Shown in pieces: positions 1,905-56,266 of a stretch of 64,000 nucleotides of DNA. Positions within the stretch are counted from its first letter, which is position 1; every line of letters begins with the position of its first letter. The notes below the pieces were generated by a model. The model ran no database searches. It saw nothing but the letters and a program-made list of their open reading frames with translations, and was not told where the DNA came from. Made by a program: the position numbers and the translations under genes. Source of the DNA: Octopus vulgaris (taxonomy: Eukaryota); the NCBI GenBank assembly GCA_951406725.2, contig OX597817.1, positions 74,400,001 through 74,464,000 of the forward strand, in the 5' to 3' direction.

Positions 1905-3320
1905 GTAGTCCCATGCAAAAATGAAAGAAAACATTAGTGATTCAAAGCTAGAGCAGCTGATTCTAAAGAATTAATTTATCACAACGAAATAAACTTTTAG
2001 CATATGGATTTTAAATTCACACAAACACTAAAATCTGACACAAGAGATCGTGTGGAAGCCTGTAGAAAACCTTATCTATGGGAATTTTCCCAAAAGAAAG
2101 GACTGCATAGATCCATCACTTGTAAAAAAAAATGGAATTTAAACATCCGATGAACAGGAATAATCACATATAAGAATATATAACATGTCTGAAAAATCAT
2201 CAAATTCAAATTGTATAAAATAAAACATTAGAAAACAGCAAAATCCATTGTCTACAGAAAGCTTTCTCTATAACCATTAAAGGTTATAGAGAAGGTTAAC
2301 AAAGGTGAGGTCGTTACAATTATGGACAAGACCCATTACAGGAAATCTCTTAAAACAACTAAAGGAACAACATTTCTACAAAATAAATTCGAATCTAATG
2401 CAAATAGACAATGAACAAAACTGATAAATTAATGGACACATTGAAAAACAATTTAACGGCAAATGAATTGGTTCACTTAACTAATTTTGAGGTAAAACAA
2501 AGCAACAATTTATGGACTACCGAAAATTCATAAATCTGAGGAAATCCATAGCAGCTTAAAGGACCTCCATACATTATAGATAAAAATTCCTAAATTGTCT
2601 GACTTAAAATTAGGCCCAGTTCTTGTATGACCAAAATCAAACCAATGATTAAAGCAATATGCTGGACATCAGATTAAAACTACTAGGGAAACTGATTCCT
2701 AACTTCATCCGAGAGAACAGAGATTTCTTGGACCACGTTCCAGAAACTATGAAAATAGAGACGATACTGGTTAGTTTCCTTCTGACCAGCTTCTGCACAA
2801 ATATCCCCTATGGATTAGGATTGGAAGTTGTGGGATTCTAGATAGACAAATACCTGAGAATAATTCAGGAGAGGTTTTTAAAAACAATTCATACTTGAAA
2901 GATTACAATTGGTGTTAGAAAAATACTTCTTTTTTGGTAAAAGGATGGAATGGGTCTGAAAGTTGCACCCATGTTTGCAACACTGTTCATGAGATTCCCA
3001 GAAGAAAAAATCTATGCTTGATATGCAATTACTTTTGATAAGCTTTTCTAATCCTACTGAAAAGGAAACTGAAAAAGATTCCTGGATGACTGTTATGACT
3101 GTTATACATCAATAAAATTCGGGAAGTGGTCCAATTTCGAATGAATGAAAGGAAACATCTATTTCTGGGCATTTTGATAATTAAAGAAAATGAGACTTTT
3201 ACATCCGTTCTGTACTGCAACTACTCGGTCACACACCAAAACTTAGACTTTATATATTGCTAATCATTTCATTTTAAGAGAAATAGTCCACTTAATATAA
3301 CAAGACAGACGTATATGTAC
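1905..3320 (+). mobile_element. Decayed Penelope-like element, RT region
   Basis: Broken frames give NKGEVVTIMDK, YGLPKIHKS, FCTNIPYGLG, GMGLKVAPMFATL, typical of PLE reverse transcriptases. Confidence 0.7.
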
Positions 3321-7965: not shown

Positions 7966-8847
7966 CGGATCTTTTCCTTTTGAACGGCATATGTCAACAC
8001 AATTTCTAGTTAACTAAACACTTTTAAACTTCGTATACTGGTAGAATATGTTTATAAAACATCATTTTTTTCCTTGGCTTTATTGAGAAAATTCTATATG
8101 TTGTAACATATTTCGTCTGAAAATCCGAGCATTTCGGCAATTTTAACCAATCAAATACGTCCATTTGGAGTTAAAACATACCGTGCTGTATGAATATGTC
8201 CTCGTTTAAGAAACAGATTGGGTTTATTAACATTTGCGAAGAAAAAAAGATACCCTTCCCCTAACCCTAACCCTAACCCTAACCCCACCTCTAACCCTAA
8301 CCCTAACTCTAACTAAACCTAACCCTAAAATAGATTGAAATGCAATAGATCGATACTGGGTTATAATTATGGGTGACATTTTCATTTGATACCGCTAGAA
8401 AAAAATCCCATTTTCCGTAGCGGTGTCGTATGAAATTGTCACCCATAATTATGACCCCAGTATCGATCTATTGCATTTCAATCTATTTTAGGATTAGGGT
8501 TAGGGTTAGGGGTGGGGTTAGGGTTATGGTTAGGGTTAGGGTTAGGGTTAGGGTGGGGGAGGGTATCTTTTTTTCTTCGCAAATGTAAATAAACCCAATC
8601 TGTTTCTTAAACGAGGACATATTCATACAGCACGGTATGTTTTGACTCTAAATGGACGTATTTGATTGGTTAAAAGTGCCGAAATGCTCGATTTTAAAGT
8701 GGAAATATGTTACAACATATAGAATTTTCTCAATAAAGCCAAGAAAAATGATGTTTTATAAACACATTCTACCAGTATACGAAGTTTAAAAGTGTTTAGT
8801 TAACTAGAAATTGTGTTGACATCTGCCGTTCAAAAGGAAAAGATCCG
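7966..8847. mobile_element. Foldback element with (CCCTAA)n/(TTAGGG)n in its arms and a 6-bp TSD
   Basis: ~440-bp arms are reverse complements about a centre near 8408; termini CGGATCTTTTCC...GGAAAAGATCCG; ACTTCA on both flanks. Confidence 0.85.
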
Positions 8848-20280: not shown

Positions 20281-23200
20281 ATACATACATACATACATGC
20301 ATGCATGCGTACGTACGTACATACATACATACATACATACATACATACATACATACATACATACATACATACATACATACATACATACATGCGCTCGCAT
20401 GAGCGTATATACATGGAAAGATGAGAAACGCCAAAGACATTCTTGAGTTATAGATTTATGCGTTGCCTTTCTTCACACCACCACTTCTTCCTTCTGTACT
20501 TATAGTGAAATTCACTCCGTTGCAAATATTCGTGGCAGCTCTCCCACAGAAGAATCGCTTATTTCTTTTCTCCTGTTATCAACAGAGGCCCTTGAAGGGG
20601 ATCATGACCGTTCCCCTTCTTCCTTTAACTAAGCCATTATTTTTTTTTTTTAATAGCAAATTATTAAACAATCAGAGCCAAAGAATGGATAAACAAAAGA
20701 CGTAATGAGATTAGTGGCAAACCAAAAATAAATCAGTAAAGGGCATGAAATGAACAGCCCTGAACTGAAGACCATGGACCGCTCTGATAACTTAAGAGTA
20801 GATAGGTTCTGTTATCTGGATGACACATATTTAAAAGAGTGTTAAAGAGTTACCCTCTATTATTCTCTGTATTATCTTTTGTCGTTGTTATTGTTGTTTA
20901 TTATGAACAAAAGCAGTTTTGTTACTTTGGGAATCTCAAATGCTTTTGGAATATTAGAGTAAAATACACAAAAATATTAAAACGTGTTTTCTTTTAAATT
21001 TTGGAACAAGTCCAGTAAGTTTTAAGAGGATTATATTGACTCCAGTACTTCACAAGTACTTATTTTATCGATTCAGAAAGGAGAGGCCAATACCTGTGAG
21101 ACTTGGACTCACAACGGCAAAAACCAGAAGACATGCCTTTTTTTTTTTTTTCTTGGCTTCGTTTTCCCCGGCGCTGTAACTATTTTATCAACTAGCTGAC
21201 TTATTAGAGCAGAAATATGTTGATTTCAAATTTTGGTACAAGACCAGTAATTTGGGGAAAGAGAGGAAGTCGATTACATCGACTACAGTCCTCAACTGGT
21301 ACTTATTTTATCGACCTCCGAAAGAATAAAAGGCAAAGTCGACCACGGTAGAATTTGAACTCAGAACGTAAATACGAACTAATGCCGTTAAGCACTTTGC
21401 TCGGTGTGCTAACGATTCTGCCAGCTCGCTGTCTATAGCACTGGTTTCGAATTTTGGCACAAGGCCAGCAAGTTCGAGGAAGTGGTTAAGTCGATTACAT
21501 CAACTCCAGTGCTCAACAAGTGCTTATTTTACCGACCCCCGAAGGATAGAAGGCAGAGTCGACATCGGCGGAATTTGAACTCAAAACATAAAGACGGACG
21601 AAATTCCGCTAAGCATTTTGCCCGGCGTGCTTATGATTCTGCCAGCTGGCCACCTTAAAGTAGAGATATAATTTGATTTAAAACGAAAAATGTTAAATTA
21701 TTGAATTATGGGAAGCAACAAATAACAGACAAAAGCAGAAAATAACCTTTAAGCTTTGCCTGCATGTACTATCAGTAGCAAAAAAAGAATTAATAATAAA
21801 TTAACATTGCTGTTCGATCTGCTTTAAATTGCAGCTAAAGGCAATTATAATAATGGATCATTGATAATGCAGTTCTAGATACTATATGCTGTGGGATGGT
21901 GACAGCTGGATGCTTTTGATAAGGATTGGCCAGAGGTTAAGCAAAAACTACAACAATAACAAGGTTAGTGGTTAAGTATAAGTTGTTAAATGGTATCAAC
22001 TGGTTGTCTTAGATCGCTATCTCGGTATTTCTTGTGTTGCCCCTATGCATTCATTGTATTCCAAGTTAGTTCAATTCTTGATATTAACCAACCACACCAT
22101 TCTTCATTTTCTTCTTGTTTTCTAGTGCTGTCCTTATAAATTCACTGTAATTTATTTCTATCCAATTCTTGACATTAAAGTGACGAGCTGACAGGATCGT
22201 TAGCACGCCGGGCAAAATGCCTACGTCCTGGGGTCAAAATCCGCTGAGGTCGAGTATGAACTTCGTATTTTCTGAGTCAATAAAATAAGTACCAGTTGAG
22301 CACTGGGTTCGATTTAATCGATTTATCTCCTCCCCTGAAATTGCTGGTCTTCTGCCAAAATTTGAAACAAATATTTTATTTTCTGTTTTTGAAGGTATCT
22401 AATAGAGTCTTCTAAGTTTATGCCATTTTAAGAACTTTCTTTTTTCTATTTGTAAATCAGTAGAGGCAGGGCAGCATTATGACCCTTTTCAGGGATCCCT
22501 GAGACAGGTAGGATGACGAGAGAACGGGAAGAAATCATTCTCAGACCAGAGACATGGTACAAATGTTTCAGATAAGGTTGAATCTGCCAAAAGACCCCAA
22601 GGACCAGGTATTGATGTTAAACTAAGTAATTGTTTAAGTCCACACAGTAACGGTTCTTCTGACGAGCTTACCCAATGTTTCCGTCTACCAAATTAAATGT
22701 TTCCTCTATAGAGGTGGTCGTCATATCATCATTAGCAATACATGCCCAATAGAAGGAAGATAGGTTGGTAGGTTGTGTACTAAAGTGAGAAAGACCGCGC
22801 TAATAATGGTTTCAAATTTTGGCTCAAATAAGGGGACAGTCGATTACATCAACTCAAGTATATGATTGATACGTTATTTTATCGACCCTGAAAGGATGAA
22901 AAGAAAAATCAATCCCGGCAGAATTTGAACTCAAAACGTAGAAAGCCCGAAGAAATACCACCAAGCACATTGTCCGATGCTCTAACGATTACACTAGCTT
23001 GCTGCCTAATAATGTACGTTTCATCAGCCTTTTGGGATCGATAGAATAAGTATCATTGAGCACTGGGGTCAATGTAATCGACTTAGCCCTTCCCCTAAAT
23101 CAGTTGGCCTTGTGCCAATATTTGAAACCAATAATAATGTACGTTTCTATGTTGTTATTATTTCGAAAATTCGAACACTTGCACTTAAATATGAGCAATG

Positions 23201-23701: not shown

Positions 23702-24125
23702 AACGGTGAGCTGGCAGAAACGTTAGCACGCCGGGCAAAATGCTTAGCAGTATTTCGTCTGCCTTTACGTTCTGAGTTCAGATTCCGCCGAGGTCGACTT
23801 TGCCTTTCATCCTTTCGGGGTTGATTAAATAAATACCAGTTACGCACTGGGGTCGATATAATCGACTTAATCCGTTTGTCTGTCCTTGTTTGTCCTCTCT
23901 GTGTTTAGCCCCTTGTGGGTAGTAAAGAAAAAGGTATTTCGTCTGCCGTTACGTTCTGAGTTCAAATTCCGCCGAGGTCGACTTTGCCTTTCATCTTTTC
24001 GGGGTCGATAAATTAAGTACCATTTAGGCACTGGGTCGATGTAATCGACTTAATCCGTTTGTCTGTCCTTGTTTGTCCTCTCTGTGTTTAGCCCCTTGTG
24101 AGCAGTAAAGAAATAAGAAATAAGA
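23702..24125 (+). mobile_element. tRNA-derived SINE family B (Nin/Deu-like domain) with partial tandem duplication; other copies at ~3385-3592, 12565-12785, 21220-21657, 22178-22370, 42104-42320, 51015-51225, 62840-63020
   Basis: Head gagctggcagaaacgttagc...gagttcaaattcc; central gcctttcatcctttcggggt(c/t)gat..taagtacca domain; body repeated from 23933. Confidence 0.85.
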
Positions 24126-51756: not shown

Positions 51757-54169
<2,413 letters not shown>

Positions 54170-54191
54170 CATATAATATAAATAATATATA

Positions 54192-54233
<42 letters not shown>

Positions 54234-54519
54234 CAACAATTGAGGGTAAAATTAATTAATTATTAATCAATTTCACCAAGTATTCAGTATGTAAAGGGAC
54301 CATTTAAGGCGAATTCAAATTATTACATTATATAAAAGGGCTTAGTAAAATAAATTACTTTGCCACATACTGAACTCATTAGAAATAGCAGCTAAAAAAA
54401 TTTTTTTAAAACTATTTCTAATACTTAAAGAAAAATCTCTCTCATATAGTGTTTGCTCAAGTCAACTCACGAAAGTATGGGGGTAAAAACATTAAAAAAT
54501 CACAAATGCAAAGGTTATT

Positions 54520-54571
54520 TGAGAACGTACGTTTCTAGATTAGTCAAATCGACATTTCTTTCGTCAGCTCA
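54520..54571 (-). ncRNA. Type I hammerhead ribozyme (antisense copy)
   Basis: Reverse complement of 55162-55213. Confidence 0.7.
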
Positions 54572-55161
54572 GAATTCCTTGATTCGGATTTGGGAACACT
54601 GAAAGTGGGAGCATACCCTTTTGGCTTCTTCTCACTTCTGAAGATCTGCTCGAACTATCAGTGCTAGCAAATTCAAAATATGCAAGCGAAGAATTTCTGC
54701 TCTCCCCTTTCCACCAGCGTGGGTTAAAATTGGTAAACACTATGTTTTATCGGTAAAAACCGAAGCATTAAATAGAGAGAAATAAATTATAATTTCAACA
54801 GTATGTGGCAAAGTAATTTATTTTACTAAGCCCTTTTATATAATGTAATAATTTGAATTCGCCTTAAATGGTCCCTTTACATACTGAATACTTGGTGAAA
54901 TTGATTAATAATTAATTAATTTTACCCTCAATTGTTGAAATTATAATTTATTTCTCTCTATTTAATGCTTCGGTTTTTACCGATAAAACATAGTGTTTAC
55001 CAATTTTAACCCACACTGGTGGAAAGGGGAGAACAGAAATTCTTCGCTTGCATATTTTGAATTTGCTAGCATTGATAGTTCGAGCAGATCTTCAGAAGTG
55101 AGAAGAAGCCAAAAGGGTATGCTCCCACTTTCAGTGTTCCCAAATCCGAATCAAGGAGTTC

Positions 55162-55213
55162 TGAGCTGACGAAAGAAATGTCGATTTGACTAATCTAGAA
55201 ACGTACGTTCTCA
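55162..55213 (+). ncRNA. Minimal type I hammerhead ribozyme with palindromic stem III
   Basis: Stem I tgag/ctca; core CTGACGA; stem II aga/tct plus gtc/gac; GAAA; ACGTACGT palindrome; cleavage triplet GTT at 55207-55209. Confidence 0.72.
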
Positions 55214-55406
55214 AATAACCTTTGCATTTGTGATTTTTTAATGTTTTTACCCCCATACTTTCGTGAGTTGACTTGAGCAAACACTATATGAGAGAGATTT
55301 TCTTTAAGTATTAGAAATAGTTTAAAAAAAATTTTTTCAGCTGTTATTTCTAATGAGTTCAGTATGTGGCAAAGTAATTTATTTTACTAAGCCCTTTTAT
55401 ATAATG

Positions 55407-55476
<70 letters not shown>

Positions 55477-56266
55477 TATACAGGTACAACACATCACCAA
55501 CTGTAAATAACATGAAATATGCAAACAAGCAAGTTACGAGAAAAGAAACTAAAAGCAGGACAAGTAACACAAAGAACGACCTTCATCAGTTGTCAGCTGT
55601 CTATCTACTCCTCATTTTAAGCATTCAACGACAATATGAGTCTTCAAAGACAGTTGCTCCCATAACTTCCAAAATAAATTTTGGATTTTATGGAGGGCCA
55701 AAGTTGGGAACAAAAACAGGACAGTGGAGACATGCAAGGTAACCAAATGAAAACAAACATGGAGGGTCGTTAGACCAGAACGAGGGGAAAGATAGTGAAC
55801 ATTGGAAGAAATATACATATACTCACATCCATATAACGATGATCATTTCACAATCTTTATCACAAGAAGACAATTAATTTTTGTGTATAACAAATAATAA
55901 ATTATTTTATTTGTCTGTATTAATGTGTATAACATAATGTATAAATTCATTTATGAATTAATAGAGGTACAAAAAAAGCTTCTTTCATTCTTCAACACAA
56001 TACATATGTACAAATGCTGAGAATCAACTATCAAAATATTGATATATGGAAGACAATAAGTAATAAAATTAATAAAACATTATACTATAGGAGGGCGGAG
56101 GTAGATTTAGTAAGATATTAAAAAGGAAACAGTGGATTACGGTAGTGGAAGAGAAAATTATATATAGTATGATATAGAAGGAAAATAATAATTTATTATT
56201 TTACTTGTTCATAATTATAATCATTCTTGTAGAATACTGGAAATGATAATGATGGTGATGATGATG

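Follow-up and report, generated by a model that had tools for sequence, protein, structure and literature searches.

Non-LTR retrozymes and their circular RNAs have been described in metazoans (Cervera and de la Pena 2020, PMC7229834), and a recent preprint traces retrozymes to Penelope-like elements (PLEs; Li, Clavereau and Pollet 2026, 10.64898/2026.07.22.740005). The vertebrate survey in that preprint reports units of 51-972 nt, its invertebrates are three insects and a coral, and it leaves the mechanism by which retrozymes integrate unresolved. For PLEs, copies that are inverted and 5'-truncated, and a tail carried at one end, are on record (PMC8557442, PMC3846280). Two internal RT starts, cutting and extension of both strands and a predicted dimer have also been described (PMC11167929). 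In the same study the ribozyme is dispensable in vitro, uncut linear RNA is sufficient, and the in vitro start site is equal on both strands and non-homologous to the target. The minimal hammerheads of PLEs are expected to act as dimers and with low activity, and circular templates have been proposed for PLEs (Cervera and de la Pena 2014, PMC4209133).

The element that we describe here lies in a 64,000-nt stretch of the Octopus vulgaris genome (the window; contig OX597817.1, 74,400,001 to 74,464,000). The locus holds a young member of a dispersed 561-nt repeat family that is non-coding and carries a predicted hammerhead ribozyme. The family is a non-autonomous element of the non-LTR retrozyme kind, likely mobilised by PLEs, and this class is already known. 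With metazoan non-LTR retrozymes (PMC7229834; 10.64898/2026.07.22.740005) it shares non-coding, AT-rich head-to-tail repeats with one type I hammerhead per unit, thousands of copies ranging from dimers to long multimers, and the presence of PLEs in the same genome. The retrozyme-type repeat proposed in a preliminary description of this DNA is borne out by non-coding, head-to-tail units that each carry a hammerhead and form a dispersed family. Units are longer here, 545-565 nt against about 170-400 nt in the invertebrate retrozymes described. Its dispersed, (TA)n-targeted and often inverted insertions with two fixed ends have no counterpart in the accessible text of the retrozyme papers. In further contrast to retrozymes, the 561-nt family is known from sequence, and no homologous pLTR of an autonomous PLE was found among the loci examined.

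The likeness to EN+ PLEs (PMC8557442, PMC3846280, PMC11167929) lies in the anatomy of the insertions. Both insert into microsatellites or AT-rich DNA and show 5' truncation, partial tandems and, on the 5' side, an inverted truncated copy. In both, only one end bears a tail, and the hammerhead precedes two internal sites at which the RT starts. The insertions of our family, tandem or head-to-head, truncated at the 5' end and tailed at one end, have the anatomy of a non-autonomous PLE derivative. EN+ PLEs code for protein, whereas the 561-nt family has no ORF; its tail is about 100 nt rather than 30-40 nt, and its hammerhead lies 200-300 nt before the starts. Chlamys MRC1 (PMC8557442) is likewise a non-autonomous PLE derivative with multicopy head-to-tail insertions. 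Non-autonomous PLEs of Chlamys resemble an autonomous partner at the 3' end, whereas no partner was found here among the loci examined, and their PLE clade reportedly lacks canonical hammerheads, unlike the 561-nt family.

Literature searches on octopus hammerheads, cephalopod Penelope and retrozymes (with Repbase, Dfam, subscription papers and preprint supplements lying outside them) returned no description of the family, and the main text of a 2026 octopus repeat annotation (PMC13282606) does not contain the word "ribozyme". The family is relevant to how retrozymes integrate in animals and to what causes inverted PLE copies with a tail at one end.

Anatomy of the element and its predicted hammerhead

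Two back-to-back arms, each longer than one unit of the ~561-nt repeat, lie in (TA)n at 54226-55410. Unit position 1 is the first base 3' of the predicted hammerhead cut. The features are:

54171-54229, no strand: left target microsatellite, (TA)n-rich (TRF)
54226-54800 (start approximate), minus strand: left arm, 1.02 units long, from unit position 285 (inner end) to site B (outer, 3' end)
54226-54321, minus strand: "tail", site A to site B, ~96 nt; at the left end of the element only
54245-54277, minus strand: predicted hairpin B, unit 246-278; ends 15-19 nt before site B
54339-54364, minus strand: predicted hairpin A of the left arm, unit 159-184 (cross-family alignment and fold)
54520-54571, minus strand: type I hammerhead of the left arm, exact-motif match; predicted cut between 54524 and 54523
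54799-54800, no strand: head-to-head junction of the arms, 2-nt overlap (CA), from the sequence
54799-55410, plus strand: right arm, 1.09 units, 612 nt, from unit position 151 (inner end) to site A at unit position 201 (outer, 3' end)
54850-54945, plus strand: internal copy of the tail segment, including hairpin B at 54894-54926
55162-55213, plus strand: type I hammerhead of the right arm; predicted cut after 55209
55368-55393, plus strand: predicted hairpin A of the right arm; 10-22 nt before the site-A ends of the family, with 2 compensatory pairs between families
55411-55473, no strand: right target microsatellite, (TA)n (TRF)

The outer end of the left arm falls at unit position 293-297, where its terminal TATA blends into the flank. 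Coordinates and terminal repeats, measured anew, agree with the preliminary description, which had two inverted arms with periods of 562 and 561 and unequal overlaps: 11 nt in the left arm counted from 54228 (11-13 nt), and in the right arm an exact terminal repeat of 51 nt (49 nt counting from 54801). Its (TA)n flanks correspond to the two TRF arrays, and its claim that there is no ORF also holds, the longest stop-to-stop open frames within the element being 50-62 aa. By its sequence, the element is without coding capacity and without LTR anatomy. The arms mismatch at 7 of 560 aligned positions, one of them in an A/T run; hence, the locus is no perfect fold-back read artefact.

The hammerhead core CTGACGA...GAAACGTACGTT occurs once per arm, at 55166-55209 (+) and 54567-54524 (-). 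Stem I of both hammerheads has 4 bp (TGAG/CTCA), and in the right arm the CTGACGA and GAAA core is joined to a 2-bp stem III with a palindromic GTAC loop. The CUGANGA / GAAA / UH core and stems I-III of a type I hammerhead are thus all present, with a non-canonical base pair in stem II. The minimal hammerheads of PLEs (PMC4209133) also combine a 4-bp stem I, a long stem II and a tiny stem III with a palindromic loop. Unlike these, which have a conserved G-C at the base of stem II, the family of this copy (family 1) has A-A, U-U, A-U or G-U there, and U or A at the cleavage position. In a second family (family 2) the stem II base is G-C or other.

The ribozyme is predicted from its core motif, conservation and covariation, and these agree with the type I hammerhead in each arm and the palindromic stem III loop of the preliminary description. 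The covariance-model check that it had proposed turned out differently: an Rfam search gave no hammerhead match here, either at the gathering score or at E<=10. Unit 511-17, the hammerhead plus the 17 nt that follow it, contains none of the 38 sites that are polymorphic in the top-hit set (p about 0.006). Conservation and covariation would favour a function. The activity may nevertheless be low. In this copy the base of stem II is an A-A mismatch and the cleavage position is a U, both of which reduce hammerhead activity, and the minimum-energy structure of the isolated hammerhead is not the active form (fold z +0.82). The fold and the stem II base suggest that the monomer activity of the predicted ribozyme would be weak.

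In a structure alignment of 5 family-1 and 7 family-2 sequences (A2), six named helices are 96.6% paired, compared with 36-47% in slid controls. All cells of stem I are paired, and 3 of its 4 pairs are compensatory. RNAalifold independently recovers stem I, stem II and the tail helices, and closes the core in a non-active pairing. Hairpin A has 2 compensatory pairs between the families and is weak by itself (fold z -0.81). For hairpin B the fold z is -3.35 (identical right-arm copy) and 97.6% of cells are paired across the two families; no compensatory change was found in it across these two families, so that it is conserved without covariation. The unit as a whole folds well (z -4.7). Most of the compensatory changes distinguish family 1 from family 2, and they hence represent few independent events.

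Outer and inner ends of the arms

Arms were mapped in the 30 best DNA matches (28 after two duplicates were removed), in 46 loci chosen by the hammerhead pattern, mainly in order along contig 1, and in 20 stretches chosen by the tail motif. Their outer ends fall at two sites ~100 nt apart. Site A lies at unit 194-206 (once 173, once 191), ~200 nt past the predicted cut, and site B at unit 292-298 (once 280), ~297 nt past it. Ends reported at unit 303-318 are alignment overruns into the TA flank and were counted as B, and the tally omits L244 (a duplicate of L243) as well as L092 and L251, whose ends are hidden.

Among 61 two-armed insertions, 56 have one end at A and one at B, one has B at both (L167), none has A at both, and four are unclassifiable (L018, L101, L209, L245). 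A is therefore paired with B in 56 of the 57 classifiable copies (p 8e-16 versus independent choice). The 29 single-arm insertions end 13 times at A, 15 times at B and once elsewhere. For family 2, whose query demanded a B arm, the partner arm ends at the A-equivalent in 22 of the 24 two-armed loci listed (excluding the duplicate L127; L124 probably arose by segmental duplication). Outer ends enter (TA)n, a microsatellite and AT-rich target, in nearly all mapped arms. At 56/57 the rule of a tail at one end is nearly strict, whereas the accessible text of the PLE papers has "often" or "optionally"; literature searches on PLE tails and inverted copies and on Neptune and microsatellite targets returned no counted A-with-B rule.

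The inner ends behave differently from these fixed ends, being evenly distributed over the unit (126 ends, chi-square p 0.86). Only 3 of the 126 lie within about 3 nt of the predicted cut, versus 160 crossings of it. The pile-up at the cut expected for cut linear monomers is absent across the 126 inner ends, and also in 12 family-1 loci chosen by the tail motif alone. Fixed outer and evenly scattered inner ends point to two fixed starts with random stops and not to free permutation. Hence, the circularly permuted registers of the preliminary description give way to the two sites A and B in the mapped copies. Its template of more than unit length with an intact ribozyme junction fares better: so few inner ends near the cut, against so many crossings, indicate that the RT reads across the intact junction.

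The ends also bear on whether the element is a DNA satellite or MITE-like inverted repeat moved by DNA mechanisms, or an assembly fold-back. We regard this as very improbable. Short copies of the family do resemble palindromic MITEs, a 12-unit array is flanked by N stretches, and no read or contig spans the locus. Against this, 3' ends that are fixed while 5' ends are ragged, arms that are unequal in length and different in sequence, and a covarying ribozyme all indicate reverse transcription.

How did the inversion arise? From its inner end at unit 285 the left arm passes the junction and reaches 297; the right arm starts at 151, likewise passes the junction and ends at 201. This copy is one of 22 among the 57 classifiable two-armed copies in which neither arm spans the whole of the other. 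Because neither arm of this copy fits in the other, there was no switch onto the first cDNA, and two primings are needed. The preliminary description had attributed the inversion to a strand switch, which the arms do not support. That the RT primed only once and then switched strands or snapped back onto the cDNA just made is improbable for the family, since a copy of the first cDNA would have no reason to end at the other site 56 out of 57 times. For this copy it is excluded unless the switch was onto a second RNA, that is, a second priming. On the other side, 6 of 61 two-armed copies have palindromic junctions with inner ends that coincide within 3 nt. Self-priming has been put forward for such junctions (PMC3846280), and snap-back could explain these six.

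Both arms stem from a single source. Variants at unit 301 and 454 are exclusive to the two arms of this copy among 28 loci, and the distance between units of one insertion is 0.3%, versus 7.3% between insertions; such private shared variants and low within-insertion distance indicate a common source. The nearest other copy is 0.8% away. We had considered a 147-nt perfect match between the arms as a sign of mixed templates and dropped it, as differences are few and the match may, by our estimate, be due to chance.

As a whole, the data are quite probably best explained by a twin-primed copy in (TA)n with two fixed ends, inserted in the manner of a PLE. A borrowed Penelope-like RT/endonuclease likely inserted the element by priming from each end of the cut DNA. 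Both strands of (TA)n would be cut by a PLE protein that is probably a dimer. Site A would then be primed by one DNA end and site B by the other, with a conserved hairpin 10-20 nt upstream (5') of each site. Both cDNAs would then extend 5'-ward, halt at random and join via overlaps of 0-5 nt. If only one cDNA were extended, a single arm ending at A or B would result. We infer that the predicted hairpins A and B would position an RT dimer. Sites A and B are TATA-like and could reflect pairing with the target, unlike the PLE start of PMC11167929.

Circular or linear template

The template is the part of our explanation of which we are least sure, and this copy alone does not decide between circle and line. 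That a ribozyme-cut and ligated circle is the step by which the units of the lineage are re-amplified and made homogeneous has, in our judgement, just under an even chance. That uncut read-through multimers served as template is a serious possibility held with some reserve; the remainder we assign to template jumping.

A consistently linear account would keep PLE twin priming and have the template always be an uncut linear read-through of tandem copies. Identical arrays would then come from DNA-level expansion or conversion, and the hammerhead would merely trim RNA. We consider this account plausible, if somewhat doubtful. A 708-nt linear RNA running from unit 151 across the junction to 297 suffices for this copy, the predicted ribozyme looks weak, the dominant in vitro PLE substrate is uncut RNA (PMC11167929), and 8 of 9 frog retrozyme dimers are uncleaved (10.64898/2026.07.22.740005). 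Moreover, some arrays (L252, L096, L095) are mosaic. L252 (G000:C1:213671800-213675300), a 5-hammerhead array of the subfamily of this copy, alternates between haplotypes from unit to unit; its 4 full units are mosaic at 20 variable columns with a partial period-2 pattern, which suggests template switching or unequal exchange. In L096 a unit in one arm and a unit in the other have two private variants in common; private variants shared by subsets of units occur in both L096 and L095. Units disagree in L095, L005 and L006, and the arms of L005 differ from each other. L252, L096, L095 and L005 speak against a simple monomer circle.

Other observations are difficult to reconcile with a purely linear template. 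First, no daughter can be longer than a linear source, and a lineage that is linear throughout could only become shorter; arrays of 3-12 units nevertheless recur. We count this towards the circle. Second, both arms of an insertion can be multimeric. Third, units within arrays are alike: 11 full units of L092 are identical, as are 8 of 9 in L093, and in the set without L252, 1,017 minor-allele sites are concordant across all units of an insertion, versus 4 shared partitions and 24 disagreements at polymorphic sites. DNA conversion can also homogenise tandems. Fourth, the predicted ribozyme is conserved though it marks no insertion end, which we also count towards the circle. L092 (G000:C1:71595000-71604999) is a 12-hammerhead array between two 100-nt N stretches, and calls for caution about the assembly. 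Contigs assembled from 4 of 24 sequencing runs, presumed to be RNA, cover the repeat and also a neighbouring one; contigs of this kind carry no information on ends, strand, level or circles and favour neither template.

The most specific form of the circular reading has a PLE RT dimer sit on two hairpin-marked starts of one circular hammerhead RNA, prime each start from a different end of a (TA)n break and copy round the circle. We think this rather unlikely. If true, the insertions would directly record how an animal circular RNA is reverse transcribed by the rolling-circle route, and the PLE tail and the inverted pLTR would be explained by one step. With thousands of young, short and easily scored insertions, two-ended priming and the choice between circle and line are directly testable. 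What the family adds is a near-strict two-site rule, a long tail with hairpins that may mark the start sites, and a large natural data set on which circle and line can be compared.

Family size, sister families and the search for a driver

Whole-genome motif searches were run on the 2.8-Gb, 227-contig assembly, with the reversed motif as control for the looser hammerhead pattern. The exact 52-nt hammerhead of this copy has 126 matches (control 0), longer-stem variants have 602 (control 10), the tail motif has 6,505 (control 0), and the looser pattern has 2,104 exact matches versus 1 for its control; these totals count motif matches rather than insertions. Given 2,104 matches against 1, the hammerhead is not due to chance. 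A similarity search with the unit gave 1,911 first-look candidates, of which 40 were scored. Head-to-tail repetition with a type I hammerhead in every unit was confirmed in the arrays of the family, where units span 545-565 nt and arrays reach 12 hammerheads.

Family 2 is ~70% identical to family 1 from hammerhead through tail; its hammerhead is distinct, with another stem I sequence and a GCGC loop, and sister-family stem I differs by compensatory changes. Sister non-coding families with a type I hammerhead, a long stem II and the same A/B tail occur at L139, L149, L169/L170 and L181-L200, with GCGC or GTAC loops and covarying stem I; L200 appears to be tandem with a ~590-nt unit. Identical family-2 hammerheads 8.7 kb apart at L181 proved to be a duplication, not a pair flanking an ORF. 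Lone hammerhead-like motifs unrelated to both families were seen at L153, L163, L164, L172, L178 and several of L101-L120; some have a complementary stem I and are possibly further families. L121-L150 and L237-L244 are very short, tail-only head-to-head copies, MITE-like palindromes in (TA)n that obey the A+B rule. Because short copies are MITE-like and the ribozyme is missed by Rfam, such families are probably mislabelled in repeat libraries.

A GIY-YIG search of the genome gave 6,136 candidates, of which 150 were scored, and intact RT + GIY-YIG ORFs that terminate in (TA)n are present. A young PLE family (L081-L086, L091) has many intact 781-aa RT + GIY-YIG frames and (TA)n targets. Its RT score is slightly below the Pfam cut-off, and an overlapping upstream frame of up to 479 aa has no convincing Pfam match. 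It has a partial tandem structure and, in the loci seen, a single fixed 3' end that lies ~70 nt past a degenerate hammerhead-like motif. The window itself holds a decayed PLE RT fragment at 2500-3310 (+), which is interrupted by stops and frameshifts and has 31-43% identity to the 781-aa protein.

Neither hammerhead nor tail was found as an own end in 43 GIY-YIG stretches (some overlapping) of the 6,136 candidates. In the 781-aa family and other GIY-YIG loci, blastn found no similarity to the unit, and a profile of hammerhead plus tail had no match of their own. Tail matches in L068, L089 and L196, considered as PLE ends, are separate TA-flanked insertions; a tail match also occurs in L229. 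Among L101-L200, chosen by hammerhead or tail, no PLE ORF is attached. No autonomous PLE with the hammerhead or tail of the 561-nt family was thus found among the loci examined, and we infer the driver from the anatomy. The "probably by a PLE RT" of the preliminary description stands as regards the insertions, with a tail at one end and two fixed 3' sites.

Could the units be ordinary pLTRs, the 5'-truncated ends of an autonomous PLE with an overlooked ORF? The anatomy does match PLE ends, and the scored loci are 150 of 6,136 GIY-YIG candidates. The units, however, stand head-to-tail up to 12 times without an intervening ORF, and every examined arm of more than one unit runs on into another unit. 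Instead of an RT + GIY-YIG ORF between pLTRs, as in an autonomous EN+ PLE, units abut directly. The preliminary description would have read fixed ends attached to a PLE ORF as an ordinary pLTR; the 3' ends are indeed fixed, and no ORF is attached in the loci examined. We consider an ordinary pLTR quite improbable and prefer a non-autonomous family, which may have a related autonomous parent.

Several other repeats lie in the window. Beside the right flank, at 55480-55800, is a different high-copy repeat with a CTGATGA word on the minus strand, which is deeply covered in all four runs (presumed RNA), as assembled contigs. At 53740-54100 lies a degenerate direct repeat, its copies spaced by 183-184 nt, whose contig depth indicates a high copy number. 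Two-copy tandem repeats are found at 21224-21647 (221 nt), 23750-24113 (184 nt) and 52048-52582 (276 nt), and short, telomere-like (CCCTAA)n and (TTAGGG)n arrays lie in opposite orientation at 8259-8328 and 8488-8554.
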